From IMG/VR virus record IMGVR_UViG_3300037479_000623, positions 1 to 28,428 of that record: a stretch of DNA of 28,428 nucleotides; one strand, written 5' to 3'. Both the position numbers and the translations under genes were made by a program. Source of the stretch: a virus (Duplodnaviria > Caudoviricetes). Shown here in pieces: positions 1-21,238 of the stretch. The notes under the pieces are model-generated. The model was given only the letters and a program-made list of their open reading frames with translations, searched no databases and was not told the origin of the DNA. Numbering within the stretch: the stretch's first letter is position 1; each line of letters opens with the position of its first letter.

Positions 1-309
1 GTCGGGCATCGGCAGCGAACGATGCCGCCTCTGCAACGGAACCGGCTTGTAGGGGATCGGCTCTGTCGGGTCCGGTTGATGCCCTGCCAGCTGGATGGGT
101 GAAGACGGGGCGTCACTGGGCTCATGTGCAACGAACAACCCCTGCGCGGCTGGCGCTTTGACGTCGTGCAAGACGGGGGGCCGCAAGGACCGACCCGGCT
201 TTGCGCGTCGCATCCTCTGCCGCTCCTCGCGGTCGAGCATCTCGTAGATGCGCCGGGCGGCGAGGTCGATGCTGCCGGGGCGAGGGGGCTGGATCGGCCG
301 GAAGGGCAT
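1..309 (-). CDS. Putative capsid-cargo/effector protein with scaffold-like N-terminal leader (partial, runs off window start)
   Basis: Not in ORF track. Hand translation from ATG at 309 with AGGAG RBS upstream: MPFRPIQPPRPGSIDLAARRIYEMLDREERQRMRR..., open for 103 codons to position 1. Leader nearly identical to that of 20210..21238. Confidence 0.8.
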   Translation of the reverse strand, partial: MPFRPIQPPRPGSIDLAARRIYEMLDREERQRMRRAKPGRSLRPPVLHDVKAPAAQGLFVAHEPSDAPSSPIQLAGHQPDPTEPIPYKPVPLQRRHRSLPMPD

Positions 310-342
310 GGTTCGGACTCCTGTCTTAGTTAGGGGTGACTG

Positions 343-1626
343 CTACACGATGCCGCGGTTGTCGTAGCGGAGCGGCGGCATCTTTTCGTCGCGCGTCTCG
401 CGCAGGCCCATGGCGAGGTAGCGCAGAGCATCGGCGGCGTCGCTCGACCAGTCGTGCAGCGGCCGGTCGTCGAAGCATTTGCGGCGCTCGTCCCACTCGC
501 GCCGGTAGACGCGCAGCGCCTCCAGGCCGGGCCGGCACTTCTCGGCATCGAACCAGCAGCGCGGCAGCAGCTTGCGCACCTCGTTGATGCCGTCCATGCG
601 CTCGTGCTGCGGCAGGACGCGCGGGCGCAGGCCGAGGTTCTGCAGCGTCTCGACCCGCGTCCGGCCGCCGCCCAGCTCCTGCACGCGCGCATCGTGCGGT
701 AGGATGTGATCGCCATAGGCATAGGGCTTCCGCCGCAGGACCTCGGCGTAGTGATCGAGGCCGACGCCGGACGATTCGTAGTAGTCGATCAGCCGCACCT
801 CGCGGCCGACCGGCTGGCAGAACCAGATGGCGGTGGCGTCGTTGACGCCGAGGTCCCAGGCGGTGTGCACGGGAACGCCGGGCTGCCAGGGCACGCGGGC
901 GATGCGGCCCTCGGCCTCGGCCGCGGCGATCAACGGGCCGTAATAGGCGCCGCGGACGGCGGCATCAAAGGAGCACTCGAATTCCTGCGCGTATTCCTCC
1001 TCCGACATCTCGGCGCGGGCGGCGGCCAGCTCGGCGGCATCGATAATGCCGGTCTCGCTGGCGCGATGGAGCCGGGCCAGCCAGGCCGGATCCGCCTTGG
1101 CGCGCTCGTAGAGCTCGTAGAGCGCGTTGCGGCCCATGGGCGTGCCGATGAAGACGGCCCAGCCGCGGCGGTCGGCGAGCGCCGGACGGATCACCTCGCT
1201 CCACACCCGCGGCCGCATCTGCGCGTATTCGTCGAGCACGACGCCGTCGAGATAGAGGCCGCGCAGCGAATCCGGATCGTCGGCGCCGTAGAGCGTGATG
1301 CGGGCGCCATTGCCGAGATCGCAGCGCAGCTCCGTCTCGTGATGGGTCGCGCCCGGCAGGCCGGCGGTGTAGCGCTTGAGGTAGTCCCAGGCGACCGCCT
1401 TGGCCTGGCGGTAGAAGGGCGCGATGTAGGCGAAGCGCGGCGCCTCGAGCTTGCACCAGCCGGCCCGGCGGACGAGCTCGCCGATGGCGAAGACCGTCTT
1501 GCCGAAGCGCCGGTGCGCGACCAGGACGTTGAAGCGCCGGAGGCTGCGGTGCAGCTCCAGCTGATGGGGGCGCGGCTCGTAGCGGCACTTTCGGTTCTCG
1601 TACATGCGTCTTGGCGTCTTGGTCAT
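343..1626 (-). CDS. terL: Phage terminase large subunit (ATPase + RNase H-like nuclease)
   Basis: Walker A HRRFGKT, Walker B VVLDE, GTPMG coupling motif, QEFECSF, nuclease WDLG..D.TAIW, LPHD and HDWSSDAADALRY. Start could be 1605. Confidence 0.95.
   Translation of the reverse strand: MTKTPRRMYENRKCRYEPRPHQLELHRSLRRFNVLVAHRRFGKTVFAIGELVRRAGWCKLEAPRFAYIAPFYRQAKAVAWDYLKRYTAGLPGATHHETELRCDLGNGARITLYGADDPDSLRGLYLDGVVLDEYAQMRPRVWSEVIRPALADRRGWAVFIGTPMGRNALYELYERAKADPAWLARLHRASETGIIDAAELAAARAEMSEEEYAQEFECSFDAAVRGAYYGPLIAAAEAEGRIARVPWQPGVPVHTAWDLGVNDATAIWFCQPVGREVRLIDYYESSGVGLDHYAEVLRRKPYAYGDHILPHDARVQELGGGRTRVETLQNLGLRPRVLPQHERMDGINEVRKLLPRCWFDAEKCRPGLEALRVYRREWDERRKCFDDRPLHDWSSDAADALRYLAMGLRETRDEKMPPLRYDNRGIV
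1463..1538. repeat. Direct repeat copy 1 (terL Walker A region), paired with 3378..3453
   Basis: 72/76 nt identical by manual alignment. Confidence 0.9.
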
Positions 1627-1929
1627 TCCTCATGTCCGTCGAATGGCCCACGTCGCAGCGAGCCGGTATGTCGGCGGCTCAATCTGATGCGACTCGAAGG
1701 GCACAACGGGATTCCCGCCCAGGCCTGAATGGTCCGAGCGCTGGCGTCTACCAACCAATTGGTATGGCTGTATTTTTTCGCGTGGACCCCTGATTTACCC
1801 GTCCCCGCGACCTAATTTTCGTTTGTTGAATTCCTCTTTTTAGGTATATCGGCTCCTTGTTGTCCTCTCCAATGATCCTAATTATCCAAGTATCAACTCC
1901 TGATTTTCCGAACCGCGCCTCAGCCACAA

Positions 1930-3150
1930 ATGTATCTGCGCTTTATCAGTTCGCGGGTTGAAGAGGCGCTGACCGATACGCCCGTCGTACTGGTCAACGG
2001 TCCACGGCGCGCTGGCAAGACCACGCTCGTCCAGCAGATCAAAGATCGCGATCGTTCCTATTTGACACTGGATGATCCGACCACGCTTGCGGCCGCCAAG
2101 GCCGATCCTGTTGGATTCATTCGAGGTCTCAATGCGGCCACGATCGATGAAATACAACGCGTTCCGGATCTCCTCCTGGCAATCAAGCAATCCGTCGACA
2201 ACGATCGTCGGCCGGGCCGCTTCCTATTGACCGGCTCCGCCAACATCCTGACGATTCCGCGGGTCGCCGATAGCCTTGCCGGCCGCATGGAGATCGTTCG
2301 GATGCTGCCGTTGGCCCGAAGCGAAATCGTCGGGCGCCGGCCGACATTTCTGGACGAAGTCTTCAGCGGTCGTGTTCCAGCTCCACGAGACCTGTTGCTC
2401 GGCGACGATCTAATGCGCGCGGTGCTCGCAGGCGGCTATCCCGAGGCCTTGACGCGCCGCTCCGAGCGGCGTCGACAAGATTGGGCTGACGCTTATGTCG
2501 AGGCGGTCGTGACCAGAGATCTCAAGGACATTGCGGTCGTCGAGCGTTTGACGGATTTGCCCAAGTTCATGCGTCTGCTGGCCGAGCACTCCGGGCAGAT
2601 GGCGAATTATTCGGAACTCGGCTGCGGCATCGGCGTCGATTACAAAACAAGCCAGCGATACGTCAGGCTGCTCGAGCAGCTATTCCTCATCACCACGCTC
2701 GCTCCGTGGTACACCAACGCCATCAAGAGAATCGTAAAGTCGCCGAAACTCCATGTCATGGATTCCGGCATCTTGGCCGCGGTTCGCGGCGTGACCTTCT
2801 CCCGATTGAAGACGGACCGCGGGCTACTTGGCAGCCTGCTTGAGACCTTCGTCGTGTCGGAGGTCATGAAGCTATGCACATGGTCAAACGAACGTTGCCG
2901 GCTCCATCATTTTCGTGATCACGCCCAGCACGAGGTCGATTTACTGCTGGAAGACCGTCAGGGACGCATTGTTGGAATTGAGGTCAAAGCGCGCGCCACC
3001 GTCAACCAAAGCGATTTTTCCGGCCTGCACAAAGTTGCTGAGGTCTGCAAGGACCGACTCGTCTTCGGAGTTGTCCTATACGACAGCGACAGGACAGTGC
3101 CGTTTGGCGACCGCCTCTTTGCGGCGCCCATCTCGAGCCTGTGGAGCTGA
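1930..3150 (+). CDS. AAA_14 ATPase with DUF4143 and C-terminal PD-(D/E)xK-like domain
   Basis: GPRRAGKTT Walker A, IDEIQR Walker B, LTGSA, DSLAGR, GGYPE, KSPKLHVMDSG, EVDLLLE...IEVK. Confidence 0.92.
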   Translation: MYLRFISSRVEEALTDTPVVLVNGPRRAGKTTLVQQIKDRDRSYLTLDDPTTLAAAKADPVGFIRGLNAATIDEIQRVPDLLLAIKQSVDNDRRPGRFLLTGSANILTIPRVADSLAGRMEIVRMLPLARSEIVGRRPTFLDEVFSGRVPAPRDLLLGDDLMRAVLAGGYPEALTRRSERRRQDWADAYVEAVVTRDLKDIAVVERLTDLPKFMRLLAEHSGQMANYSELGCGIGVDYKTSQRYVRLLEQLFLITTLAPWYTNAIKRIVKSPKLHVMDSGILAAVRGVTFSRLKTDRGLLGSLLETFVVSEVMKLCTWSNERCRLHHFRDHAQHEVDLLLEDRQGRIVGIEVKARATVNQSDFSGLHKVAEVCKDRLVFGVVLYDSDRTVPFGDRLFAAPISSLWS

Positions 3151-3168
3151 ATCCCGAGGCGGGCGATT

Positions 3169-3268: not shown

Positions 3269-3298
3269 CGGAGTTCGCCGGCCTGCATGAGGGCAACA

Positions 3299-3502
3299 TC
3301 ATCTGCTATCGGCTGCGTCCCGGGGACATCGCCGGACTTGACCGGCGGTGAGCCCATGCTGTTTTTCAGTCGGGATCGCCCGGCGGATGAGCAGGCCGAT
3401 GGCGAAGACCGTCTTGCCGAAGCGCCGGTGCGCCACCAGGACGTTGAAGCGCCCCAATTGGCTGAAGGTATATTCCCGATTGGACGCCGCTTGATTCCCC
3501 AT
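3299..3502 (-). pseudogene. Truncated 5' fragment of terminase large subunit
   Basis: RFNVLVAHRRFGKTVFAIGLLIRRA matches the terL N-terminus. Homology ends abruptly near 3378. Confidence 0.85.
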
Positions 3503-3567
3503 TTGGACGATGAAGCCTCAGCGGTGAGCGGCAACCGCCACCCGGCGGGGCAGGGGGGCCCGGCGGA

Positions 3568-3666: not shown

Positions 3667-3782
3667 GGGCGCCTCCAAATCGTTTCATGAGACATGCAAC
3701 GACATCTTTCCCAGGACGCCGCAACCCATCCCGGCTACACGGTGTAGAAGCAACCGTCATTGAGGTGAGGTAACTTCGGTTC

Positions 3783-4220
3783 ATGCTCACCCTAAGATCC
3801 GCGACTGCCGATGATGCGCTGCCACTTCTTGATTGGCAGCGGCATGTGGAGACCCGGCGCTATGCACGCGACCCAACCGTCGCTAGCGAAACAGAGCACT
3901 TGGCGTGGTTCGCCAGGAAGCTTGAGAGTCCCGATTGCTTATTCTTTGTCGCTACGGATGGCGACAATCGAGTCGCCTCACTACGCCTCGATCGCCTTGG
4001 TGAAGAATGGGAACTGTCGATCGTCGTCGCGCCTGAGCTTCGTGGGCGAGGTATTGGTAAGCAAGTTCTCCGCCTGTTGATGGCGCACGCGCCTGGACCA
4101 CTTGTAGCCGAAGTTCTGCCTGGAAACGAGCCGTCGCACCGATTGTTCGACGTTTGCGGTTGGCAGCTCGGTGAAGACGGGCGCTATCGCTATTACTGCC
4201 TACCGAAAAAGACGACGTAG
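3783..4220 (+). CDS. GNAT family N-acetyltransferase (RimJ/PseH-like)
   Basis: LRSAT.DD...LLDW, EHLAWF, acetyl-CoA motif ELRGRGIG, N.PS.RLF..CGW. GAGG RBS upstream. Confidence 0.88.
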   Translation: MLTLRSATADDALPLLDWQRHVETRRYARDPTVASETEHLAWFARKLESPDCLFFVATDGDNRVASLRLDRLGEEWELSIVVAPELRGRGIGKQVLRLLMAHAPGPLVAEVLPGNEPSHRLFDVCGWQLGEDGRYRYYCLPKKTT

Positions 4221-5488
4221 ACCCAGGGTCGGTCAACTGTCGCAGTCACTCCATGCAAGGTTGTTCTCACCGGGAACGCACCGGCGGTCTTGCTGCCTGC
4301 GGCGTCCTGTCCGACCAGCGTCTGTTGCGCTGCGTCTGATGGATTCGTGATTGCCATACCCATTGCTGCATAGTTCGTATCTGCAAATGGCGTCGTGAAG
4401 GTGACTACGTACCTGCCCGTTGCTAGTCGTTGCACCGACGCAACGTTATGGCCGTCAATCGGCGAATTGGTGCCTGTGGCAGTTCCATCAAACGTGCACC
4501 ACGCCTTCGGATGCCCCGGATGCAGGTGCTGCCGTGCCGGCGAGGTGAACGCGGCGGTCGAGGTGGCGGCCTCCATTTCGGCTTCGGAGGCGGGGGCGAA
4601 GGCGATGCTGGCGCCGTTGACCTGGACGTCGGCGGCGTTGATCTTGCCGGGGCCGGGATCGCCGCCGGTCGGGTTGCCGACCTTGAGGCCCTGGCCGAGG
4701 GTCATGCGCTCGGCGAGCGCGCCGCTGACGAGGCTGTGGAAGGCGAGCTCGGCGTCCTCGCTGCCGGCGGTCGGGTCGAGTAGGCGGGCAACAAGCTTGG
4801 CGGCCACGTCGGTGCCGCCGCCGGCATCGCGCATCAACCAGCGGAGCGCCATCAGCAGGTCGTTCGCGGCCGGCGTCGGCGAGGCCCGGTCGAGGTCGAT
4901 GGCGGCCTTCTCGTCGGCGGAGGCGTCGGCCGAGCGGAAGACGTGCGCGCCGCTCCAGGTCATGGCCGCCGGCGCCAGGCCGGCCGGCGTCACCGCCTTG
5001 GTCGCGGTGCTGCCGGCTTCGGTCTCGGCCTGAGTCGCCAGGCGGACCGCGCCTGATGTGGCCGTGCCCGCGGGCGGGATCGCGCTGTCGGTCGCGCTGA
5101 GGATGCCGATGGCGATGGCGAGGGACTCGTTCTGCAGCGATCCGGAGTCCCAGGTCACCGTCACCGTCGTGTTGGTGGCAAAAGCCGCCGATGCGATGGT
5201 GCCGTAGATCGTGCCGGTCAGCGGCCCGCTCGCCTTCACGCGCCGGCCGGCATGGTAGACGGCCGTCACGTCGACGCCGTTGATGCTGAACGACGTGGGC
5301 GAGACGTAGGCGGTGGCGAAGGCGCCGTCGCCGTCGCCGTAGATGATCCACTGCGCGTCGTTGTACCACTCGCGAATGTCAGCCTGCACCTGGCGCATGC
5401 CGTCGTTCACCGCGGACGGCGCCATCCCCTCCGGGAAGAGGGCGGTGTTGTTGGCGGGTATCGTTGAATAGTCTTTGATGCCGGACAT
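4193..5488 (-). CDS. Tail fibre / receptor-binding protein
   Basis: N-terminal EGMAPSAVNDGMR anchor, two LAT/AS-x-AE...TPA fibre repeats, C-terminal KAWCTFDG..NVASV....TGRY.VTF..PFADTNY tip domain. TAGGAG RBS. Confidence 0.82.
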   Translation of the reverse strand: MSGIKDYSTIPANNTALFPEGMAPSAVNDGMRQVQADIREWYNDAQWIIYGDGDGAFATAYVSPTSFSINGVDVTAVYHAGRRVKASGPLTGTIYGTIASAAFATNTTVTVTWDSGSLQNESLAIAIGILSATDSAIPPAGTATSGAVRLATQAETEAGSTATKAVTPAGLAPAAMTWSGAHVFRSADASADEKAAIDLDRASPTPAANDLLMALRWLMRDAGGGTDVAAKLVARLLDPTAGSEDAELAFHSLVSGALAERMTLGQGLKVGNPTGGDPGPGKINAADVQVNGASIAFAPASEAEMEAATSTAAFTSPARQHLHPGHPKAWCTFDGTATGTNSPIDGHNVASVQRLATGRYVVTFTTPFADTNYAAMGMAITNPSDAAQQTLVGQDAAGSKTAGAFPVRTTLHGVTATVDRPWVYVVFFGRQ

Positions 5489-5660: not shown

Positions 5661-6575
5661 TCAAAACGCGCTCAGAAGGCCGCCGAGACCGGCACCGAGC
5701 AGCATCCCGAACGGTCCGCCGAAGGACCCCAAGGTGCCCGGAAAGGCCTTTTGGAGACCTTCGCCAATGCCGCCAAAGAGCTGGGCGCCAGTACCCATTC
5801 CGCCGAGGACGCCGGCGCCTGAGGAATAGGGCTGCGTCGTGCTCGTCGTGCCGCCGAAGTTGCCCTGGATGAGGGCCGCGTACTGGCGGAGCTTGTCGGC
5901 GGGCGTCTGCTGCTCGAAGTTCCAGCGCGCGACCTGGTCGTTGATGAGGGCCTGAGCCATGGCGTCGCGCGCGCGGCCGACGGCGTCGAGCTGGGCGATG
6001 TCGGCGTAGTCCTGCTGCGCGTAGGTCGGCGCCGCGTTGAGGGCGTTCAGCATGTGGGCGCGCTCGGCGGCGTAGTTCTGATAGCCGAGGTTGGCGGCGA
6101 GATCGCCGAGCTGCGCCGCCAGGTTCTGTTGCGCCTGCTGATGGGCGGCGAGATGCGCGCCGGAGCCGTAGCGCCCGGCCTGCGAGAAGGCGCTGTCGAT
6201 GCCCGGCGCGACCGCGGTCTGGTAGTTCCGCGTGACGCCGCGCGCCGTCGCGTCGATCGCGCCCTGGAGGTAGGGATTGGCGTTGAGATAGGCGCCGCCC
6301 AAAGTGCGGTCGAGCTCGGCGCCGCCGGCAGCGGTCAGCGGCGAGCCGCTCCGGGCGCGCGCCGCCTGCGCCTGCAGCGCCATCTCGCGCTCGGGCGAGA
6401 AGCCGGCGACCGTCTGACCCGGATAGTAGAGCGGGCCCGGCTGTTGATAGAGCCGGTGCGCCTCGGGGAAGATGCCGGCGATGCCCTTCTTCGGATCGCC
6501 GATCAGATAGGGGATCTGCTGCGACCACGGCTCCGACTTCTGAACCGTCGTCTGGGTGTCGCTGGGACCGGACAT
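5661..6575 (-). CDS. Internal virion / DNA ejection (pilot) protein
   Basis: True start at MSGPSDTQTTVQKSEPWSQQIPYL with AAGGAG RBS. NPYL, AGRYGSG and Gly-rich hydrophobic C-terminus. Position after tail hub genes. Confidence 0.72.
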   Translation of the reverse strand: MSGPSDTQTTVQKSEPWSQQIPYLIGDPKKGIAGIFPEAHRLYQQPGPLYYPGQTVAGFSPEREMALQAQAARARSGSPLTAAGGAELDRTLGGAYLNANPYLQGAIDATARGVTRNYQTAVAPGIDSAFSQAGRYGSGAHLAAHQQAQQNLAAQLGDLAANLGYQNYAAERAHMLNALNAAPTYAQQDYADIAQLDAVGRARDAMAQALINDQVARWNFEQQTPADKLRQYAALIQGNFGGTTSTTQPYSSGAGVLGGMGTGAQLFGGIGEGLQKAFPGTLGSFGGPFGMLLGAGLGGLLSAF

Positions 6576-6991: not shown

Positions 6992-7312
6992 TCAGCCGAG
7001 GATGACGTAGTCGAAGGCGCGATCGGTCTGCGCGTTGTCGGCATGGACAAGCGTGAACGCGCCCTTGTCGCGGGCCGACACGTAGATCGTGCCGTTGCCG
7101 ATCTCCGCCGCCGCGTTGGCGCTGACCGGCATGAGCAGGATGACGCTGGTTGCGGTCGCCCGCGGATCGATGACGACGGTGCTCGCGGCGTCGGGCGTCA
7201 GCGTGACCGATCCGGTGCAGTTGAGCTTGCCCTGCGCCAGGCGATTGACGACCGCTGCCACCTGCCGCGGATCGCCGCCGGCGACCGGAAGAGCCGGAAA
7301 GCCCGCGCTCAT
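6992..7312 (-). CDS. Small tail protein (106 aa)
   Basis: ATGA overlap with upstream stop. GKLNCTGSVTL ... FTLVHA..AQTDRAFDYVILG. Confidence 0.7.
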   Translation of the reverse strand: MSAGFPALPVAGGDPRQVAAVVNRLAQGKLNCTGSVTLTPDAASTVVIDPRATATSVILLMPVSANAAAEIGNGTIYVSARDKGAFTLVHADNAQTDRAFDYVILG

Positions 7313-8796
7313 CTGGCACCTGCCGCACTCGCCTCGATCTCGTCGATGCCCTGGATGTGGCGCCAGTCGGCGCCGGCGGCGACCTCGATGCGGGCGCGGA
7401 AGTAGCGACCGTTGGCGCGCACCGGACAATGTCCGAAGCCGTTGAGGGCCCGCGGCGGATCGAAGGAGACCGGATCGACCGTGCGGTTGCGCGTGCCCGT
7501 GCGGACGCTGACCGCGCCCGGCGCGGCCCCGCCGTCGACGAGAGGCCGCAGGCTGCGCAGAAGCGCGCGCCGGCCAGGGACGAGCTGCGCCTCGCCGGTG
7601 TCGACCGTCGCCTGCATGTTGGCGCCATTGAAAAAGGCGATGCGGTTCGCCGCAGTGAAGCCGGCGAGCAACAGGCGGCCCGAGCCGGTCCAGATCCGGT
7701 TGTCGAGCGAGAACGGCAGCTCGTCGAGGTTAGTCGAATAGCTGTCCAGGCCGTCGAGCGTGTAGCCGGCCTGCGAGGCCGCCTGGTGGACCATCTCCAT
7801 GGTCACCTCGGCGCGGCTCCAGCGGTCGGCCGTCCAGTTGTAGATCAGCAGGCGGTTCGGCGTGCCGCCGGTGAGGTCCGAGCCGGTGCCGGGATAGGAG
7901 ACGACGTAGAGCTTGTTGATCGGATCGATCGTCGCCGTGATCCGATGGAGGTAGGTCTGGTTGACGTCGTTCCAGAAGAACCGGTCGACGCGGTGGTGGC
8001 CGATGGCGCGCAGGCCCTGCGCACCCGGAAGCGCGAAGAAGCCGTCATCGGACAGAAAGAACGTGATGTCCTCGTGCCGCGCGATGGAGCCTTCGGCCGG
8101 CGTGCCGGTGCCGCGCGCGATCTCGTCGAACTGGAAGATCGCGGGCACGCCGACATAGGTCATGCGCTTGATCGAGCGCTCCTGGAAGACGAGGCCGTAC
8201 TCGCCGCCGACGATACCCATGACATAGCCGCCGTCGGGCAGATCCTGGAAATCGGCCTGGGTGGCCTGCGACGACGCCCAGGTCTCCGCGTTGTTGATGC
8301 CGGACCAGTGGACGCGCTGGGCCATCCCGCTCAACCGGCCCATGACGACGAAGTCGCGCACCGTCGCGACGAAGCGCGCGACGGGCGGCGTCCCGCCTAG
8401 GGCGGCGAAGCTGGTGGAGCTGCCGATCGCGAACTTCTGCGCCGCGTCGACGCCGTTGACGGCGATCACGAAGTCGCCGAACTGGGCGAACGACCAGCCG
8501 CCGTCGGCCGGCACGGCATAGGGACCGCCGGCGGTGCGGCTGACATCCGTCCAGCTGACGCCGGCATTGTCCCATTTGTAGAGCTTGGTCGCGTCGCCGG
8601 CGAAGTTGGCGATGGTGCCGCCCTGGCCGCGCGCCAGGATGGCGCCTTGCACGCGCGCAGCCATGGCGTTGCCGGTCGCGACCAGCGTCGGCAGCGGCCG
8701 ATAGCCGGCCGCGTCCGGAACAACGTTCCGCGCCTCGAGGGCGCCGGGATTCTCGAAATCCGGCAGATCGGGCTGCCAGGCCCCGATTGGGATCAT
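7309..8796 (-). CDS. Tail hub / DNA stabilisation protein (P22 gp10 or tail tubular B-like)
   Basis: 495 aa, beta-rich, GAWQPD start, VHWSGINN..TW, position downstream of adaptor. Confidence 0.75.
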   Translation of the reverse strand: MIPIGAWQPDLPDFENPGALEARNVVPDAAGYRPLPTLVATGNAMAARVQGAILARGQGGTIANFAGDATKLYKWDNAGVSWTDVSRTAGGPYAVPADGGWSFAQFGDFVIAVNGVDAAQKFAIGSSTSFAALGGTPPVARFVATVRDFVVMGRLSGMAQRVHWSGINNAETWASSQATQADFQDLPDGGYVMGIVGGEYGLVFQERSIKRMTYVGVPAIFQFDEIARGTGTPAEGSIARHEDITFFLSDDGFFALPGAQGLRAIGHHRVDRFFWNDVNQTYLHRITATIDPINKLYVVSYPGTGSDLTGGTPNRLLIYNWTADRWSRAEVTMEMVHQAASQAGYTLDGLDSYSTNLDELPFSLDNRIWTGSGRLLLAGFTAANRIAFFNGANMQATVDTGEAQLVPGRRALLRSLRPLVDGGAAPGAVSVRTGTRNRTVDPVSFDPPRALNGFGHCPVRANGRYFRARIEVAAGADWRHIQGIDEIEASAAGAR

Positions 8797-10399: not shown

Positions 10400-10468
10400 T
10401 TCTTTCTGTTGATTTCTAGTCGCCAGCCATAGATACGGAAGGCCGTCGGCCGACGAGTGACGACTTTG

Positions 10469-11590: not shown

Positions 11591-11626
11591 GGTCTCTCCT
11601 TGCTTACGGACAAGTTGCGGCGGCGA

Positions 11627-12514
11627 TCAAGCGCTTTTGTAGCCGTTGGCGCTAAAGTAGACAGTCGATGAAGCGACCAGGCTCGCCATGTTCAGGGCGG
11701 TATTGGCGCTGAGGCGAAGCGGCGGATCGAAGGCGATGTTGCTCCCGCCATTGGCCGGCGCGATCGTGCGCCAGATCACGGTGCTGCCGTCCTTGATCTC
11801 GATGATCGGGTCGTTGGCCGAACTGTTGGCGATCGAGATCGAGGTGACGTGAATGCGCACGCCCGTTCCCTGCGCTGCGATGACGGAGGTGTCGGTTGTG
11901 CCTGTGGTTGAAGCGAGGCCCGACACCTGCTGCTCGGGAACGCAGTGGGAGCGGACGACAAGCTTGCCGGCGGCATCGGCTTGCAGGCGCGTGACGCTCC
12001 CCGAGCTGACGGCTGCCTGATCGCTCGTCCGGGCCTCGGCACCGATGACGACCGGACGCGGCCCGACGGCGGCGCCGTGGTCGTCGGGCCCTTGGGCGAG
12101 CACCCGCTGGCGCCCGCTGCCGTCGACCGCGATGGCGCCGTAGTCGCCGTCGGCGCTGGTCATCACGGCGCCGCTGTCGTTCCGCACGCCGAGGACGAAC
12201 ACCCCGGTGTCGCCGGAGGCGTGCGCTGCATCCTCGGCCTTGCCGAGATGTGCCGCCGCCGTCCCCGGCACGATGCTTGTCGAGACGGCGGACACGGCGA
12301 CTGTGCCGGTCACCGGCACCGGCGACTGGTTGGAGGCAATGGCGACAGGTACGCTGTTCGCCATCGTCTGCTGGCCGGCATCGAGCAGGGTGTCGAGCTC
12401 GTCCTCGGCGCCGAGAGCGATCTTGATCTTCTGGTAGTGCGCGCCGGCGATTTCGTCGGTGGCGACGGCGGGGTCGCCGCCGCTGCCGGCCGCTGTCTGG
12501 ATGTTGTCGGACAT
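11627..12514 (-). CDS. Virion structural/appendage protein (295 aa)
   Basis: Start MSDNIQ overlaps the adaptor stop (TAATG). ATDEIAGAHYQKIK, GQQTMANSVPVAIASNQS and KAEDAAHASGDTGV motifs recognisable from phage fibre/decoration proteins. Confidence 0.65.
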   Translation of the reverse strand: MSDNIQTAAGSGGDPAVATDEIAGAHYQKIKIALGAEDELDTLLDAGQQTMANSVPVAIASNQSPVPVTGTVAVSAVSTSIVPGTAAAHLGKAEDAAHASGDTGVFVLGVRNDSGAVMTSADGDYGAIAVDGSGRQRVLAQGPDDHGAAVGPRPVVIGAEARTSDQAAVSSGSVTRLQADAAGKLVVRSHCVPEQQVSGLASTTGTTDTSVIAAQGTGVRIHVTSISIANSSANDPIIEIKDGSTVIWRTIAPANGGSNIAFDPPLRLSANTALNMASLVASSTVYFSANGYKSA

Positions 12515-13143
12515 TATGGGTTGCTCCCCGCGTGGCGGACGACAGGCGTCGAACCGGACCATGTGCCGGCGTCGTCGGCGTCCTGCAGGCGTCGGATGGC
12601 GGCTTGGTAGCGGCCTTCCCACTGGGCCAGGTGTTGATCGTCCCCGAGATAGGCCGCGGCCTCGACCAGCGATCCGAAGAGGTAGACATCCGGCGCATTG
12701 GCCAGCAGCCAGTTCGTGCTGACGGTCGGCGACAGCGCGTCGAACTTCTTCCAGTAGGCCATCTCCGCCGTGTACGCGCCATCGGGCGCCGGCGCGAACT
12801 GGATCTCGTCGTTGACGATGGCGTAGAGCCGCGGCCGCCCGCTGCGCGATCCGGCGGCAACGCGGTCGATCAGTTCCGGCGCCACCAGGTCGAGGGCGGT
12901 CACCGGATCGGTATTGAGCTGAAGGTTCCGCATGGCAAGGAAGCCGGCCGGAAGCGCGATATAGGGGCCGTCGGCCGTCGCGGTCGCCCGCTCCTCCATG
13001 GCGCGAATCCGCAGCTCGCGGTTGATCCGCAGCTCACAGAGCGCGATCCAGTCCGGGACGATCGGCGCGATGATCGCGTCGCCGGGGCGGCCAAGCCAGT
13101 TGCCGATCGCGTTCTGCAGCTCGGCATAGGTCGATATCGCCAT
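12514..13143 (-). CDS. Head-tail adaptor protein
   Basis: MAISTYAELQ.AI..WL.R, I.L.E.RINR.LR...ME, TNWLL..APD.YL.GSL.EA..YL. Confidence 0.85.
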   Translation of the reverse strand: MAISTYAELQNAIGNWLGRPGDAIIAPIVPDWIALCELRINRELRIRAMEERATATADGPYIALPAGFLAMRNLQLNTDPVTALDLVAPELIDRVAAGSRSGRPRLYAIVNDEIQFAPAPDGAYTAEMAYWKKFDALSPTVSTNWLLANAPDVYLFGSLVEAAAYLGDDQHLAQWEGRYQAAIRRLQDADDAGTWSGSTPVVRHAGSNP

Positions 13144-13880: not shown

Positions 13881-15326
13881 TCAGTTGTCCCGGCCTCGTT
13901 TGCGCATCCTTCTCCGAACCGCACGGCCGAGTCTCTCGGCGCCGGAATCGAACCGTCCTTCGTCGCCGAGCTGCAAACGTGCGCGCCTCAGGATCTCATT
14001 CTCGCGTCTTTGCGCAATGCGAGCACCCTCACTCATCAGGTACTCATCTGCAAACCATTGATCAGCCGGCTGGTCCGCTTGTTCTCTCTTCACTTCGACG
14101 TCCTCTCGTCTTTTCCACCACTTCTTGCGACCGTAGTCGTAGATTCGGGAGCTTCGCATCAGCGGACTGGGCGGAAGCTTGTATTTCTTGCCTGGCGTCG
14201 TCTCGTAGCCGAGAAGTTCATCGCTGCGGCGCGCCACATTCTCCAGCAGGATACCAGGGTTTCGATTGATCTGAACGCGCTCCTGCCGCCGCCGATAGGG
14301 CGCGAGTGCTCGTATGATTTCCAAGCTTGCATCAGCGTGGCGTGCAGCATCCGCGAACTCGTTATAGGACATCCGAAGCGGCGCCAGGTTCGGCTGCTTC
14401 GCACGCGGCACCCCGCTTGCACCAAGGAGCGCATAGGCGATGAGGTCTTCGGGTTCGCCACCGTGCCCGAATGTCGATGCGGCTCCCAGGCTGCCCATCG
14501 CCGCTGCTCGGGCGCCCCAACTCAAGGGTTCAAGTGCCTTGGCGCCCAGGCCTAGGAGTCCGGCTTTTGCCGCCGCCCCCGCCGCAGCCTCCAACCCTTG
14601 ATCCGACTCCCGAATGGCATCGACTGATGCCATTCCCATGATGGGTCCAAGCCAACGTGTTGCCGTCAGATACTGGGCCACCTCCGCCGGTGCCTGGCCA
14701 ATCCCAGCGTAGATCTTGCTTGGGACCGATCGGGGCAGTTCTTCCGGCTTGGGAGCGACACGCGCGGCCGCATGATGCAGCCAGTTCTCGGCATCCTTCC
14801 ACATCGTGCCTTCGCTCATATGGCCGACACCGGTGAAATCTGTCATGAAGTCGTTGGCGCGATTGATGAGACCGACCGCGTTGCCGAGTGTGTCGTAGAA
14901 CCCTGACGCACCAATTCGATAACCAGTCCACAGGTCCTTGCCGGCCTGCGCAAATGCATCGACGGTACGTGTGCCGAGATCAGAGAGCTCATCCTCGAGC
15001 GAAATGCCGTGTTCCGGTCGCGCCCCCCGACTCAGTCGGCCGCGCGGATTGCGTATGATTTGATCCGCTCCTTTTCGGCCGTGGCCGCTTCTTGTCGGAT
15101 CAGTGACGGTTCCGGCGAGAGCATCAAGCAGACCGACCTGCCCGGCTCGGACACGAAGCGGCAGGCTTCTGGTGTGACTTCGTACAGTTGCTGGGTCAGC
15201 CGCTTGGTACGCGTCCGCGATCGCCAGGAGCTGCGGCTCGCTAAGCGCGTCGAGGAGGCCGGGGACGAAGTGCGGCGCAACGTAGCGCCGTTGCGGCGCA
15301 AGGCCGCTGTTTCTCATATAGAACAT
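13881..15326 (-). CDS. Hypothetical 481-aa protein, possible internal virion/effector
   Basis: AAGGA RBS, two GLLDAL motifs near the N-terminus, Gly/Ala hydrophobic middle, highly charged basic C-terminus. Confidence 0.65.
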   Translation of the reverse strand: MFYMRNSGLAPQRRYVAPHFVPGLLDALSEPQLLAIADAYQAADPATVRSHTRSLPLRVRAGQVGLLDALAGTVTDPTRSGHGRKGADQIIRNPRGRLSRGARPEHGISLEDELSDLGTRTVDAFAQAGKDLWTGYRIGASGFYDTLGNAVGLINRANDFMTDFTGVGHMSEGTMWKDAENWLHHAAARVAPKPEELPRSVPSKIYAGIGQAPAEVAQYLTATRWLGPIMGMASVDAIRESDQGLEAAAGAAAKAGLLGLGAKALEPLSWGARAAAMGSLGAASTFGHGGEPEDLIAYALLGASGVPRAKQPNLAPLRMSYNEFADAARHADASLEIIRALAPYRRRQERVQINRNPGILLENVARRSDELLGYETTPGKKYKLPPSPLMRSSRIYDYGRKKWWKRREDVEVKREQADQPADQWFADEYLMSEGARIAQRRENEILRRARLQLGDEGRFDSGAERLGRAVRRRMRKRGRDN

Positions 15327-15384: not shown

Positions 15385-15555
15385 CAGATGTGAGGACGAT
15401 TCGTCAGTTGCTCAGGATGTCGTTACCTCGAGCGCAACATCGAAATGCCATGGCCCAGAGACAATAGTGTGTGGCCAAGCGAGGTTGCGATTCCTGCCCT
15501 TTCAGCGCCATTCTTGGGCTGTAGAGCAGGGGACGGCGCGGAAACCGGAGTTCAT

Positions 15556-16362
15556 ATGAGGGGCATTCGAAACAACATTGTTGGTTTCCTGTGGTTACTG
15601 GGCGCGGCCGGCCTGGCCAATGGTGCTCTGAGCCAATCGACCATCGACGGGGATTCGCTTGAGTTGTCGCCGGTCCGAGACCTGATCGCGGACTTTGTCC
15701 GGACCTACCCTGATGCCACCCTCGAGGACGCCGCCGCTTTCGCCAACGCCCGCGCCGCCGAGTATGGCGTCAACTATGAATTCTTCATGCTTGAAGAACC
15801 GCCGGCACGGACGGTGGTGTTGCGTTCGGGCACACGGCGCCTTCTGGCGGTGACGCCCGCGGACGTCGATCTGGGCGCCTGCGGCGAGTTCTGGGCGACG
15901 CTCCCGGCCGTCCGCTCCGGCGATGATAGGATCGAAATCATGCATCAAGGGGAACGGATATCGGTAGCGCGACCCGCCGACCTCCTCATCGAGTCGATGA
16001 CGATTTTTTCGGCCGATGGCCAGACGGTGGTCGAGCGAATCGACCTGCCCTGGTGGAGCTGGCCGCTTCGCGTACTGCCCGACGGCCACGGCATCATCCT
16101 CGCCTTCCCCCTGGGCGAGGAGGCCGGCGCTTGGTGGCAGCGCGTCAGGGCAGCTCACACACAGATCTGGGAGCCCTACCCGCACCTGCGCGCGCAAATC
16201 AGCGCAGACGGCGTGCGTTTCCTGGGCGATCCCTCCGCCTACGTCAACGAGTCGATCGAAAGAATCGACGACTTTCGCGGCCGGTTGGAGGATTCCTACT
16301 TGCATCGTGATCGGTTTCTGAATTCCGGTTTCGTCGTCGAGTATCACACACCCTGCACCTAA
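15556..16362 (+). CDS. Exported hypothetical protein, candidate immunity to the M23 peptidase
   Basis: GGAG RBS, ATG at 15556, Sec-like signal MRGIRNNIVGFLWLLGAAGLANGALS. Convergent with the M23 gene (20-nt gap). Confidence 0.65.
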   Translation: MRGIRNNIVGFLWLLGAAGLANGALSQSTIDGDSLELSPVRDLIADFVRTYPDATLEDAAAFANARAAEYGVNYEFFMLEEPPARTVVLRSGTRRLLAVTPADVDLGACGEFWATLPAVRSGDDRIEIMHQGERISVARPADLLIESMTIFSADGQTVVERIDLPWWSWPLRVLPDGHGIILAFPLGEEAGAWWQRVRAAHTQIWEPYPHLRAQISADGVRFLGDPSAYVNESIERIDDFRGRLEDSYLHRDRFLNSGFVVEYHTPCT

Positions 16363-16382: not shown

Positions 16383-17051
16383 CTACCGTCGCTGACGCGC
16401 TCCGAGACGTTCCCAATCGTCGATTTGCTTGCGCCAGGCATCGACCCATGGCGTTGGATCAACACGACGGCCGCTTGAATCGAAGAATTCGAAGTGCACA
16501 TGATCCGTCATTCGACCACCGCCCCTCACCGGATAGGCGGCCTGAAGGCTTTGCGACAGACCGAGCACTGTGTTCGGTGTGACAGACTGCCCAACCTCCA
16601 GGCCTTCTGTCGGCTCGACATAGAGCATCTTGATCTTGTGTCCGTCCGGTCCCGTGACGTGAATGCTGCGTAGTCCATGCAGTCCGTCTTTGTATGCCCA
16701 CCCAACGTTCGTGATGGTGCCTTCAATCGGGGAATACACCGGCGTGCCGGGCGAGATGGCAATGTCAATTCCACGATGCGGATAGCTTTTCCCGGCTTGC
16801 GTTCGATTGGCCAGGAATGCCCCACCCTCGCGGGCATAGCCATCCGGCCGTCGGATATGGGCCGAAGAGAGAGGTGCGTGTGTCATTGGCCAACCGGCCA
16901 TCGGATCGTTCGAGTTCGCCGTGGCTGCGTCAGCCGCCTGAGCCTCTGCTGGCCGCGACCGAGCCCCTACCTCATGCTGCAGCATTCGGTGAATTTTCTG
17001 CGCTGCTTCATCGATGTCCCTGGGCGCACCTGGGTAGAACTGTTTGTACAT
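16383..17051 (-). CDS. M23 family metallopeptidase with scaffold-like leader
   Basis: HRGIDI (HxxxD), GTPVYSPIEG, HVHFE (HxH), VDPTPW. N-terminal DIDEAAQKIHRML. No signal peptide. Start ATG 17051 or GTG 17057. Confidence 0.88.
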   Translation of the reverse strand: MYKQFYPGAPRDIDEAAQKIHRMLQHEVGARSRPAEAQAADAATANSNDPMAGWPMTHAPLSSAHIRRPDGYAREGGAFLANRTQAGKSYPHRGIDIAISPGTPVYSPIEGTITNVGWAYKDGLHGLRSIHVTGPDGHKIKMLYVEPTEGLEVGQSVTPNTVLGLSQSLQAAYPVRGGGRMTDHVHFEFFDSSGRRVDPTPWVDAWRKQIDDWERLGARQRR

Positions 17052-17119: not shown

Positions 17120-18076
17120 TTACGGCGTCGTCAGGTCGGCGACCACGCCGGAGGAGGCCTCCTGCTTGGCCACCAGCGCGTACTCGACCAGCAGCTGACG
17201 CTTCTCGCTGTCGCCGGTTTTCGCCAGCTCGACCTGCTGGAAGGGACGCAGGTAGGCGACGCCCCAGTACTCCATGTCCAGCACCAGCGCCGAACGGTCG
17301 CGGCTGAAGCGCGACGGATAGATCCGGTGCTCTCCGAAGTCGCTGACATAGACGTCAGCGCCGGCGATGATCGTGGCCTGCTTCGTGCCGGAGTTCTCGC
17401 GATACTGCGTCGCGATTCCGGTGAAGGCCGAGCCCACCGCCTTGTTCTTCGGGCCGACGATGATGGTCGAGGGATCGCCGCCGTTTGCCCAACAGGACTG
17501 GATCACGTTCTTCAGCAACGCTTCCGTGTAGGCCCGCTGGGTGCCGTCGGTCGCCGCACTGACGGTGCCGCCGGAGAATCCGCCGGAGGCCCCGCCGGCG
17601 CCGCGGTCGACGTTGCTGGTGAGCCACGCCTCGACCGAGCCGGTGGTGCGGGCGACGGACGAGCTGCCGGCGGCTGAGCCCTGGTTGCCGGTCAGGATGA
17701 GCTCCATGTCGCGCTTCAGCTCCTTGGACTTCTTCGCGATCTGGTAGCTCAGCTCCGACTTGCGGCCGGCCTTGTCGACCGCCTCCTGGGTGCCGCTCAC
17801 CACCACGGTCTTGTCGGAGATCTGCGTGTAGTTGCCCACGCGCTGGGTCGGCCCGGTGGCGTCGAGCGTCGCGTCGTCGCCCTCGACGACGGCGTTCTGC
17901 GCCGCTGCCGCGAGCGAGTCGGTCTGCCACTCATGGAACGTGTTCCTGGCCTTGAGCCGCTGGGCCATGGACAGGAACGGCGTCTGCGTCGGCGAGATGT
18001 TGTAGATGACCTCGCTGAGGTCTTCCTTGTTGCCGACGGCGTCGTAGGAATCGAAGGTATTGGCCGGTTGTGCCAT
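17120..18076 (-). CDS. Major capsid protein (DUF5309/SU10-like)
   Basis: GNKEDLS.VIYNISP..TPF, HEWQTDSL, NYTQI, KELKRDME, YVSDFG, LAKTGDSEKR...EY.L. AAGGAG RBS. Confidence 0.93.
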   Translation of the reverse strand: MAQPANTFDSYDAVGNKEDLSEVIYNISPTQTPFLSMAQRLKARNTFHEWQTDSLAAAAQNAVVEGDDATLDATGPTQRVGNYTQISDKTVVVSGTQEAVDKAGRKSELSYQIAKKSKELKRDMELILTGNQGSAAGSSSVARTTGSVEAWLTSNVDRGAGGASGGFSGGTVSAATDGTQRAYTEALLKNVIQSCWANGGDPSTIIVGPKNKAVGSAFTGIATQYRENSGTKQATIIAGADVYVSDFGEHRIYPSRFSRDRSALVLDMEYWGVAYLRPFQQVELAKTGDSEKRQLLVEYALVAKQEASSGVVADLTTP

Positions 18077-18330: not shown

Positions 18331-19383
18331 CTACAGCATCTCTTCGATCAACCGGGCGGCGTCTTCCGTCCGGCCGCTGCGCTCCAGCCGGGTCATCAGC
18401 CTGGCGCGCCGCTCGGCGGCACCAGCGCGCGGGCCGCGGGCGGTGCCGGGCTTCTGCACGCGGGGCAATGCCGCCAGGGTCTCCCTGACCTTGTCCCGGT
18501 TCGCCATCAGGCGGTCGTAGAGCATCGCCTTGCGGGCCAGGATGAAGTCGCGGTGATCGATCAGGCGGGACAACTCCTCCTGCCGGTAGCCGGATTCCAG
18601 AAGATAGCGGGTAAGAGCGGCCGATTCCTGCCGCCCCTTCACCGGGTCCGCCATCTCCGGAAGCTTAGCAATGAGCGCGTGCTTCTGCTGGGCGACATGG
18701 TCCTGATGCGCCTGCACGACCTGAAGCTGGCGCTGCTGCTCCTGCTGCCGGAGCTGCAGCTGTTCGGCCTCGGCCTGTTGCAGCTGGGTCGAGAGCACGT
18801 CATAGACCGGCTTGGCCTGGGCGAAGAGCGTGGGGTTCTCGCTCGACAGGCGGTTCCAATCGATGCCGTCGAACTGCGCGAGCTGTTGCTGCAGCGCGGG
18901 GATCTGGCGGCCGAGCCGGTCGGCGTGGTGCCGGCGCTCGACCACTACCGCCGCCCGCTCGCTCTCGAGCTCCGCCTGCGCACGCGCGAGGTCGCGACGC
19001 GCGTCTGCCAGCCGCATCGTCTTCTTGGTGTAGTCGGCCCCGCGCTGGTAGCCCTTGATCAGCTCGTTGAGGGTGACCTCGGTCTCCTCGCCACCCACTT
19101 TGACCCGGTAGCGCGGCTCGTCGGACCCGTCGCGCTCCTCTTCGCCGTCACCATCGTCATCATCGACGGCGCCCGTGCCCTCGTCCTCGCTATCGATGTC
19201 GTCGCCGTCGTCTTCCAGGTCGGGCACGTCGCTCTCGGATGCCGCCTCCTCGCTGGTCGGCTCTGTTTCAATCGGGTCGGCTTCCTCGTCCCGGCGGATG
19301 ATCTTCTCGATCGCGCGCGCAGCGCTGTTGAGGTCGTGAATCGGGGAAGCAGTTGCCGTCTCCGGCGTCGCTGCGTCGGTCAT
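18331..19383 (-). CDS. Capsid scaffolding protein
   Basis: Acidic N-terminal region, VKVGGEETEVTLNELIKGYQRGADYTKKT, coiled coil, IDW..L...NP, DHR...ARKAMLYD.L, C-terminal SGRTEDAARLIEEML. AAGGAG RBS. Upstream of the capsid gene. Confidence 0.88.
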   Translation of the reverse strand: MTDAATPETATASPIHDLNSAARAIEKIIRRDEEADPIETEPTSEEAASESDVPDLEDDGDDIDSEDEGTGAVDDDDGDGEEERDGSDEPRYRVKVGGEETEVTLNELIKGYQRGADYTKKTMRLADARRDLARAQAELESERAAVVVERRHHADRLGRQIPALQQQLAQFDGIDWNRLSSENPTLFAQAKPVYDVLSTQLQQAEAEQLQLRQQEQQRQLQVVQAHQDHVAQQKHALIAKLPEMADPVKGRQESAALTRYLLESGYRQEELSRLIDHRDFILARKAMLYDRLMANRDKVRETLAALPRVQKPGTARGPRAGAAERRARLMTRLERSGRTEDAARLIEEML

Positions 19384-19529
19384 GTCGACTCCTTCTGGTT
19401 GAAGTGGAAGTAGGGGGTGACTTTCGTATTGCAGATTGGTTGCGTATATATACTTATATGCTACTAATACGTGTGCAAGTTTAGGTTGCACGCCGCCGAA
19501 GCCAATCGCCACTTCGTCAGGGTCACGCG

Positions 19530-20192
19530 ATGCCGGACCACCGCTCCGAACCGCCAGTAGCCGATATCCGCCTCCTCTTTCCGCGGTGGATTCGCCGTCT
19601 GCTGCTCTGTCTCGGGATCTTCGTTCTCTACTCTCAACTTGTCAGCGCCGGGCTAACGGCCGTGTATCGGTATTCCCCATGGGAGCCATCGTTTGTCGAT
19701 GGTCATGACCCCGAGATATTCGAGCCGGGCACCTACACGCTCCTGCAACCGCCCGAGGGCATCGGAAGCGCCGCCGACCTGCGGGCGGTCGGGTGGAGAA
19801 TCGAACTGTCACCGATCCGCTATGCGGCTTGGGCTGTGCTCGCCCCCGTCCTCGGCTCCGCCGCGCTGTTCTTCGCGTGGGCCGCACGGGCGGGCTGGCT
19901 ATCGCGATGCATGCTCTTTCTCGGCAGCTGTGTCGGCATAACGGCGGCGATCTACATCAAGATCTACGAGTTCGAGGAAGGAGCGATCGGCTGGGCCTTC
20001 TCGGCCGGCACGATGACGGACATGTTGCCTCCGAATCCGCCTCACCCGATCTACGGATACGCCGAACTCGTCGGCAGCTTGTTCCTTCCCATCGCCCTCT
20101 ATCTGGCGATCGCGCTCTTTCTCCTCGGCTCTGCAGGTTGGATGGTTGTCCGCTGGTCTTCAGGAGCAATTCGCCGCCGCCACAGCCCGTAG
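19530..20192 (+). CDS. Multi-pass membrane protein, candidate immunity
   Basis: About 4 hydrophobic segments. Convergent with 20210..21238 (17-nt gap). Confidence 0.65.
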   Translation: MPDHRSEPPVADIRLLFPRWIRRLLLCLGIFVLYSQLVSAGLTAVYRYSPWEPSFVDGHDPEIFEPGTYTLLQPPEGIGSAADLRAVGWRIELSPIRYAAWAVLAPVLGSAALFFAWAARAGWLSRCMLFLGSCVGITAAIYIKIYEFEEGAIGWAFSAGTMTDMLPPNPPHPIYGYAELVGSLFLPIALYLAIALFLLGSAGWMVVRWSSGAIRRRHSP

Positions 20193-20209
20193 TGGGCGGC
20201 CTCACGTCA

Positions 20210-21238
20210 TCAGCGCAGCCTGTCGATGTAGGCGTTGTACGCACCGATCGCTCGGAGCAGCCGTGGGTCGTTCGGACCGACCGCATGGGCCGGCAGTCCA
20301 TAGGGATATTGATAGCCGTCCGGAAGGTATCCCGCAGTCCAGTCCGGCCCATCCGGCCGATCGGGATTTGTGTACCAGTTGGTTCGCTCATCTCGCAGCT
20401 CCGGTGGTTGCGCAGCATGAGGGCGACCATAGGGGCGTTTCCAGTTGTCATCCTTCGGATTCTTGACCCATCGGTCTTCCGACAGCCAGGTAGGGCCGTA
20501 GGGGGCGAGCGTCGATGCCGGCTCGTATGTCGGCTTCCAGGCGCCGCTGCCATCGGCTGCGCTCCCGCTCATCGCTTTGCGCGCCGCGCTGACGACGTCC
20601 CGCCAGTCGCGCGCAAACCGGCCGATGGCAATGCCGACCTCGTTGTTGCGCCGGTCCATCGCTTCTTCGTCTTCCGGCTGGTCCTTCAACTGCCCTTCTT
20701 GTTCGTGAAGATCCAATATCTGCCGGGCGCGAGCTTCCCCGAACCGACGCGTCAGCTCTGCCGCCCAAAGAACGTGACGGTAGGCATCCGCCGGGCCACG
20801 CTCGCGGCCGGGCATCTGCGAACCCACCATCTCCGATTGGGCAGCACCGCCGCCGACAAAGTGCTTGTACTCGTCGCGGCCCACACCGCGCAGCAGGTCG
20901 CCAATCCGCTCGAACGGCCCGTATTCGGCCGGTGGCCCCAGATGCGTTTCAGGCTCGCGCCGCGATGGCCGATGTCCTTGGGGCCGGCTGCCGGGATGTC
21001 CGGCGCGTTGGTTGGTACTTCCCGGTGCACGTGGGGCTTTGCGCTCCGCGCCGAAGCCATTCTCAACGGGTTCCCGCGATGCCGTGTTGGGACGCTGGCG
21101 CGGACCATCCGCGGCGTGCTTGGGCCTGCCGGGACCGCGCCTTTTCTCGCGCTCCTCGCGATCGAGCATCTCGTAGATTCGCCGGGCAGCCTGCTCCACG
21201 CTGCCCGACCGCCCGCCTCGGGCCCCCATGAACTGCAT
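20210..21238 (-). CDS. Putative effector with scaffold-like leader and DUF6973-like domain
   Basis: AAAGGA RBS, leader GSVEQAARRIYEMLDREER, disordered linker, then DAYRHVLW...HE...MDRRNNEVG motif (DUF6973-like from memory, seen at toxin C-termini). Confidence 0.75.
   Translation of the reverse strand: MQFMGARGGRSGSVEQAARRIYEMLDREEREKRRGPGRPKHAADGPRQRPNTASREPVENGFGAERKAPRAPGSTNQRAGHPGSRPQGHRPSRREPETHLGPPAEYGPFERIGDLLRGVGRDEYKHFVGGGAAQSEMVGSQMPGRERGPADAYRHVLWAAELTRRFGEARARQILDLHEQEGQLKDQPEDEEAMDRRNNEVGIAIGRFARDWRDVVSAARKAMSGSAADGSGAWKPTYEPASTLAPYGPTWLSEDRWVKNPKDDNWKRPYGRPHAAQPPELRDERTNWYTNPDRPDGPDWTAGYLPDGYQYPYGLPAHAVGPNDPRLLRAIGAYNAYIDRLR

Follow-up and report, generated by a model that had tools for sequence, protein, structure and literature searches.

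The MuF toxins carry a conserved N-terminal module followed by a variable toxin domain, are encoded in the head or packaging module of temperate phages, mostly of Firmicutes, and have been proposed to be loaded into the head and delivered (PMC5576092). In phage T4, proteins of great diversity reach the head by means of a conserved short capsid targeting sequence (CTS), which is directed to the scaffolding core; its cargo consists of anti-restriction proteins for the phage's own use (PMC3012670). The CpmB protein of SaPI1 is a natural copy of the C-terminal helix of the 80alpha scaffold that uses the same capsid site, and it is a single size-redirecting protein with the mimic at its C-terminus (PMC5644958). 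The coat-binding end of the P22 scaffold is enough to load fused cargo, in fusions that were engineered (PMC9962691), and short-tailed phages eject internal proteins through the portal and tail, those of P22 being recruited through the scaffold (PMC8402733). We have analysed a 28,428-nt stretch of viral DNA, IMG/VR record IMGVR_UViG_3300037479_000623 (the window), in which a leader of about 20 residues, here called the tag, stands at the N-terminus of unrelated proteins and resembles the helices at both ends of the head scaffolding protein encoded between them. The tag is likely a capsid-loading signal that copies an amphipathic helix of the scaffold, as an earlier note on this DNA had proposed. 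The element that carries it probably encodes a domesticated, phage-derived particle, into which antibacterial effectors would be loaded by mimicry of the scaffold and from which they would be ejected into other bacteria.

As with the MuF toxins, a variable C-terminal toxin-like domain and an adjacent immunity-like gene are found in the head module. However, the N-terminal module here is a scaffold-copying helix some 20 residues long, and no match to a MuF domain (PF04233, PF06152) was found in the 30 open reading frames (ORFs) of the window or in 77 of the 94 tagged proteins described below. Furthermore, the carrier appears to be fixed in the chromosome, and orphan cassettes exist. Like the T4 CTS, the tag is a short conserved leader on diverse proteins, but it is predicted to sit on the scaffold's own site on the capsid protein, its cargo is paired with immunity-like genes, and the head is of the SU10 type rather than T-even; 50,697 phage records, searched with one short query, gave no tag match at E ≤ 1. 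Like CpmB, the tag resembles the terminal helix of its cognate scaffold, although it is a portable N-terminal tag on variable enzymes, and nothing suggests capsid-size redirection. The extracellular contractile injection systems (eCIS; PVC, Afp) are domesticated phage-derived particles that deliver variable effectors with N-terminal loading leaders, and they are headless contractile tails. In contrast to eCIS, PVC, and tailocins, this locus has a capsid, portal, scaffold, adaptor, and short-tail module, with no sheath or baseplate match in the 30 ORFs. The capsid, portal, and adaptor belong to the same families as those of SU10 and Pa223 (PDB 9NY2, 7Z45), which are structures of mature virions of lytic phages, unlike the present element. 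The fixed chromosomal locus, the absence of replication genes in the two flanks that were read, and the apparent vertical retention recall gene transfer agents (GTAs). Overall, the element would function like the MuF toxins and the T4 CTS and borrow the trick of CpmB, but for each of the MuF, T4, and eCIS systems a defining feature is not found in it.

Five copies of the motif occur in the window, all on the minus strand, at the places given in the earlier note. Three lie inside the first 30 residues of unrelated ORFs: GSIDLAARRIYEMLDREE (276-223) in cargo gene 1 (309..<1), whose 3' end is cut by the record end so that the C-terminal domain is not visible; GSVEQAARRIYEMLDREE (21205-21152) in cargo gene 2 (20210-21238; DUF6973, PF22322); and RDIDEAAQKIHRMLQHE (17021-16971) in cargo gene 3 (16383-17051, starting at 17051; M23 peptidase, PF01551). 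The other two are the ends of the scaffold (18331-19383; phrog_3927), HDLNSAARAIEKIIRRDEE at the N-terminus (19338-19282) and GRTEDAARLIEEML at the C-terminus, the latter at 18375-18331 with the stop codon (helix, 18334-18375). The start of the scaffold gene is at 19383, rather than at the GTG at 19512. A six-frame scan with the pattern [DEN].AA..I..[MILV][LI] gave 5 matches, compared with a mean of 0.025 (maximum 1) in 200 residue shuffles. This pattern was composed once the motif had already been seen, so independent support for the tag comes from the searches outside the window. Shine-Dalgarno-like sites precede the starts at 309 and 21238, and the site of the M23 gene is weak. Hydrophobic residues are scarce (4-21%) in the linkers that follow the tags, which agrees with the disordered linkers described previously; the further description of these linkers as Pro/Ala-rich does not hold for ORF 20210-21238, whose linker is Arg/Pro/Gly-rich. 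Among six DUF6973 cargos, the pairwise identity is 59% in the tag, 16% in the linker, and 65% in the domain.

The tag profile was built stepwise from 7 leaders of the window and close loci, and genome searches extended it to 19 leaders. The 19-leader profile matched 94 clusters (50% identity) among 1.84 billion proteins, some of the clusters being training sequences, with the leader consensus P-x-x-G-S-T-D-W-A-A-x-x-I-x-R-L-L-D-x-E-E. The match begins within the first 15 residues in 87 of the 94; of the remaining seven, three are strong tags that lie in a fragment or in a gene called with a longer start, and four are weak repeat matches. The 65 N-terminally tagged proteins of at least 180 residues form 23 C-terminal groups, including 14 singletons, some of which are probably frameshifted. 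A Pfam search of 77 of the 94 gave 8 GH108, 4 weak phage lysozyme, 2 LysM, 2 DUF6973, and 1 M23 match, and most had no match; nuclease-like and Cys-rich C-terminal groups were recognised by eye. Thus, the expectation that the tag is an N-terminal module on many differing C-terminal domains is borne out, while the search pattern suggested for it was too narrow for the family, in which Trp predominates at position 16 and Gly is frequent at position 17. A DUF6973 cargo at L193:1327-1596 (G083:C9) has two tandem tag copies, and a weaker second copy is seen in several Cys-rich cargos.

In 400 other Alphaproteobacteria, with 18 candidates scored per genome, there were just three weak matches, of 21-24 bits, compared with at least 50 bits for true tags. 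A reverse search of 4,866 N-termini from 160 loci with the refined tag profile placed the true tags at the top, with 62-71 bits; they occur in 4 of the 14 close loci and in none of the 146 distant loci. The earlier note had named equal frequency of the motif in unrelated proteins as evidence against its proposal, and neither the shuffles, the 400 genomes, nor the 4,866 N-termini show it. No GenBank phage was found with a capsid protein at least 60% identical to that of the window, or with a tag match. A metagenome scan with the DUF6973 cargo gave a single locus, with the same length and match coordinates as locus L084.

The best non-tag matches in the reverse search are scaffold N-termini, with up to 22.5 bits, and unrelated ORFs do not exceed 10.9 bits. 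Both scaffold helices, N-terminal and C-terminal, are kept across distant SU10-type scaffolds. Profiles of these helices were prepared from loci with capsid identity below 70%, with the tags left out. With the N-helix profile, 15 of 19 tags score above the 99th percentile of shuffled tags, and 13 beat the best of 266 control N-termini; the corresponding numbers for the C-helix profile are 6 and 3. The near-clade scaffold helices have a median of about 8 bits, and the distant ones 0-1. The two closest window tags fit the scaffold C-helix best, and the M23 tag fits the N-helix. The reported likeness to both ends of the scaffold is therefore confirmed, with the qualification that across the family the N-terminal helix fits more consistently than the C-terminal one. 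In elements with capsids 53-56% identical to that of the window, the scaffold helices are divergent, and no tagged cargo is seen there. The scaffold has no match in the PDB.

When the capsid protein was co-folded with tag residues 5-38 of ORF 309..1, the ipSAE was 0.68 (0.66-0.70), compared with 0.00 for the best of three controls. Of 157 solved complexes, 116 attain the mark used for this score, as do 2 of 215 mismatched pairs; these figures are only rough with the alignments used. The runs agree in at least 81% of contacts, with a predicted local distance difference test score (pLDDT) of at least 70 for the partner. The tag contacts in the model are I14, A17, A18, I21, Y22, and L25, of which A17, A18, I21, and L25 are conserved columns, and the capsid contacts are residues 20-29 and 106-118, mostly conserved hydrophobic or small. 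In the model of the free capsid protein, residues 17-27 have low confidence, and 108-128 form the spine helix. The predicted docking surface for the tag combines the N-arm helix with the beginning of the spine helix. The SPP1 scaffold contacts the equivalent two elements, an N-terminal helix and the point where the spine helix begins (PMC6813328), the 80alpha scaffold and its mimic CpmB bind beside the capsid N-arm helix (PMC5644958), and the P22 scaffold binds the capsid N-arm (PMC9962691; 10.1101/2022.12.13.520362). The co-fold thus places the tag where the SPP1 and 80alpha procapsids have their scaffold site. No close complex is found in the PDB by sequence, and distant procapsid structures may have influenced the prediction. 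The model supports tag-capsid binding, and agrees with the proposal that the leader binds the capsid protein as the scaffold does.

Judging from its sequence context, the carrier resembles a chromosomal element that has been domesticated more than it does a free phage. Fourteen loci with capsids 82-94% identical to that of the window were found in Dongiaceae, Virgifigura deserti, and related bins. Their core genes are constant, and toxin-like ORFs with partner genes occupy variable slots located downstream of terL and of the capsid gene, and upstream of the scaffold. Genomes G001 and G002 have the element bordered by the same host genes (named by eye), glyQS/ppdK...acuI upstream and murA downstream, and is preceded by a CI/S24-type repressor; no integrase or replication genes were seen in these two flanks, read by eye. 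The first gene of the element (27820-28428 in the window, minus strand) is likely a late-gene regulator, with a DUF6456-like lead only. It adjoins a CI/S24-type repressor and is single-copy in 51 of 83 Dongiales genomes, and several genomes retain mere stubs of the element at the same site. The set of 83 includes the unpublished G070, which was counted only in these 83-genome tallies. At the same site in L281 (G077:C11, 4675-10654), the regulator, terminase, and tail genes are the same while the portal and capsid differ from those of the window, which we read as a head-module swap. In L277 (G080:C103, 2-1024), the start of the portal is joined in frame to the mid-portion of the tail protein, with the head genes deleted; this is either a real deletion or an assembly chimera.

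The cargo genes usually have immunity-like neighbours, which likely protect the producer, as the pairing suggests. The partner of the M23 gene (15445-16362, plus strand, probable start 15556) is convergent, has a signal-peptide-like start, and is 51% identical to a gene convergent on an orphan tagged M23 gene in G079; it is a candidate periplasmic immunity protein for the M23 enzyme. The DUF6973 cargo faces a convergent membrane protein (19530-20192, plus strand), its candidate immunity protein, in the window, in L001, and in L084 (two copies), and membrane-type genes, identified by eye, also follow the orphans L165 and L168. An untagged 482-residue cargo (23519-24967, minus strand) is followed by two immunity-like paralogues (21458-22333 and 22430-23239, minus strand) that are 41% identical to each other, and homologues of these follow the same cargo type in the close loci L006, L082, and L083. 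The C-terminus of this cargo matches tagged proteins P0023 and P0039, and is called nuclease-like by eye, with no Pfam match. Cargo gene 1 is likely a wall hydrolase, because its linker is 58% identical over 31 residues to that of tagged P0066, a protein that clusters with GH108 proteins by its C-terminus. The module itself holds tagged genes in the window (3), L001, L081, L084, L085, G080, and G082, and orphan tagged cassettes lie beside housekeeping genes, apart from the element, in G003 (3), G004, G083 (2), G079, and G078.

The 482-residue cargo has a second conserved leader domain of about 105 residues (approximately residues 77-183; 24398-24742, minus strand), which is also found at L002:4028 and 6800, L003:6828, and in L005, L006, L082, and L083. 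This leader has 40 homologues and precedes M23 (in L002), DUF6973, HNH, and nuclease-like domains, so that the same effector domains occur with either the tag or the 105-residue leader. Of the 83 genomes, 4 contain it, and each of these has the close capsid. Virgifigura deserti, a close-capsid strain, carries cargo with this leader, and no tag was found in it. The model of the leader is confident (pLDDT 85), and its structure gave a best Z of 2.6, no Foldseek match at E ≤ 0.001, and no Atlas match. Within their first 100 residues, 16 of 19 untagged slot ORFs (chosen by eye after the motif was noticed) and 11 of 15 large ejection-like ORFs of distant phages have a GL[LI] motif, compared with 15 of 102 host controls, and this possibly marks a third loading route that imitates ejection proteins. 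In the window, the observation concerns ORFs 13881-15326 and 23519-24967. One untagged slot ORF of the window (13881-15326, minus strand; 481 residues, no family match), with two GLLD motifs near the N-terminus, is a candidate cargo of this other leader type.

We suggest the following mechanism. On induction, the tagged effectors would share the scaffold's site on the capsid subunits and become built into procapsids together with the scaffold. Folded cargo would be retained when the scaffold departs, and the particles would be freed by lysis. The fibres would then attach to a target bacterium, and the cargo would leave via the portal and tail and cleave the wall or nucleic acid. Kin would be protected by the partner genes, while cells without the immunity protein would be killed; orphan tagged genes would be loaded in trans. 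The wider proposal is that the element represents a new class of weapon, a protein-filled toxin grenade consisting of a domesticated phage head and a short non-contractile tail in which DNA delivery has been abandoned, which loads any effector of the genome bearing the tag or one of two other leaders and injects wall hydrolases and nucleases into competitors. To this we give somewhat less than an even chance.

Several observations weigh against loading of this kind. The tag is found in 8 of the 83 genomes, most of which are draft bins: it occurs in 4 of the 6 genomes that have the close capsid, in 0 of the 8 whose capsid is 53-56% identical, and in 4 of the 69 in which no capsid gene was found. 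Thus, a close capsid gene was not found in half of the tag-positive genomes, and no tag was found in two of the six close-capsid genomes (G002 and G005). In G080, an intact tagged GH108 gene lies beside the portal-tail fusion that removes the head genes. The type VI secretion gene VipB is found in 4 of the 8 tag-positive genomes, including G079 and G080. One cluster member is labelled Methylomirabilota, and the genomic context is known for only a minority of the 94 matches. The hhalign probability of tag versus scaffold is 27-72%, a short and weak likeness; values no higher are expected because the match is so short. A single tag was co-folded, with a capsid monomer, without a scaffold positive control. 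Finally, the passage of enzymes of 25-50 kDa through the tail is left unexplained by these results. On the other hand, all 8 tag-positive genomes keep the first gene of the element, the tagged gene lies within the element's remains in 2 of the 4 that lack the capsid gene, and broken tagged genes, in small numbers, make up 2 of 5 in genomes without a capsid gene versus 0 of 7 in those with one.

The alternative that survives best is that the tag does load the capsid but the particle is a GTA or defective phage, whose cargo aids DNA entry by piercing the wall or tunes assembly and does not kill. The terL gene is intact in the window and in most relatives, a terS-like gene is present in many of them, and wall hydrolases are the commonest named cargo. 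A CI-like repressor and the DUF6456-like gene stand at the head of the element, and DUF6456 occurs in GTA activators. However, the cargo travels with specific, sometimes duplicated, partner genes, and it includes nuclease-like domains, while an untagged slot gene carries Tox-HNH-HHH. A terS gene was searched for without success in the window, G079, and G080, and G001 gave a weak match only. Furthermore, in 15 of 16 distant loci the small ejection gene has one or two large ORFs behind it, whose position suggests that they encode ejection-like proteins, but in 6 of 6 close elements, compared by position, the fibre follows directly and the large ORFs are missing at that place. The P22 ejection proteins, which would be their counterparts, form a DNA conduit (PMC8402733). 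We consider this explanation unlikely.

It is also conceivable that the leader directs export, by type VI secretion or by some other route, its scaffold likeness being a shared amphipathic pattern. The cargo types seen here are typical of type VI effectors. VipB is present in 6 of the 83 genomes, and the tag in 4 of these 6, two of which have intact tagged genes although no capsid gene was found. VipB accompanies the tag as often as the close capsid gene does, in 4 of 8 genomes; since these genomes share both traits, co-occurrence at the genome level does not separate the capsid route from the type VI route. Locus position, scaffold likeness, and the co-fold do separate them. VipB is never on the same contig as a tagged gene, many tagged genes lie within the capsid module, and no VipB was found in G003 and G004, which have four intact tagged genes and a capsid module. 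In addition, the tag is predicted to occupy the scaffold site. An export signal is quite improbable. We judge it similarly improbable that the cargo proteins are bacteriocins freed by lysis on induction of the element, with the tag being a relic of the start of a scaffold gene, reused for expression and without a role in loading. In favour of this are the tag's place at the same end as the scaffold N-helix and its similarity to it, the intact tagged genes that remain where head genes were lost, and the candidate lysis genes seen by eye downstream in G001. However, the protein sequence of the tag is conserved while the adjoining linker drifts, the tag has its own conserved P-x-x-G-S-T-x-W core and two copies in L193, and the few broken tagged genes are in genomes without the capsid gene. 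Least probable of all is an ordinary temperate prophage with MuF-like head-loaded toxins for its own benefit: the record is classed by IMG/VR as a provirus (73% complete), and its cargo genes lie in the head module like muf genes (PMC5576092), but the host flanks shared by two genomes, in which neither integrase nor replication genes were seen, the single-copy first gene with decayed versions in place, the orphan cassettes adjoining housekeeping genes, and the absence from GenBank of a phage with the tag or a capsid at least 60% identical all argue otherwise.

The remaining genes of the window were assigned by Pfam and PHROG matches; an NCBIfam search of 20 proteins yielded no useful name. They form an SU10-type module for the head and short tail on the minus strand. 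The portal (25340-27346; PF23899) is followed by a conserved small protein (25080-25343; phrog_8161), and the major capsid protein (17120-18076; PF17236) is of the SU10 family with the HK97 fold. The head-tail adaptor (12514-13143; PF24175) is of the SU10 type. Between the adaptor and tail genes, at 9068-12622, are three variable ORFs, one with a weak polysaccharide lyase 14 match, which are possible decoration or receptor-binding proteins. A conserved virion structural (tail) protein (7309-8796; phrog_3287) is kept in the close loci. The small DNA-ejection protein (5661-6575; phrog_4287) is followed directly, with a 173-bp gap, by the tail fibre (4193-5488; phrog_11355, 3484, 910). In L266:7096-8348 (G016, 55% capsid), an untagged DUF6973-related ORF is found where the ejection genes normally lie. 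The terminase large subunit (343-1626; PF03237, phrog_2) has moved from its usual place before the portal, the usual order in relatives being terS-terL-portal. A short remnant of the terL N-terminus at 3302-3517, minus strand, lies upstream of the intact relocated gene, flanked by a low-GC AAA_14/DUF4143 gene (1930-3150) and a GNAT gene (3783-4220), both on the plus strand. G001 has two terL copies far from its capsid locus (C3:198-1445 and C7:45008-46248), one of them split, and they are only 71-73% identical to that of the window, although the capsids are 94% identical.

The earlier note knew of no natural system of this kind, and the open-access literature (subscription papers being outside the search) holds no description of the tag or the element that we could find. 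The loading of the MuF phage-head toxins has been proposed but is still open (PMC5576092). With a tag of about 20 residues, a predicted site, and named residues, the loading of toxins into a phage head becomes directly testable. Scaffold mimicry of this kind, if true, would be a natural counterpart of the engineered P22 scaffold fusions, and the element would be a capsid-based addition to the phage-derived delivery machines. The tag is also a hook for discovering antibacterial effectors, as most of the 23 C-terminal groups that carry it are without a Pfam name.

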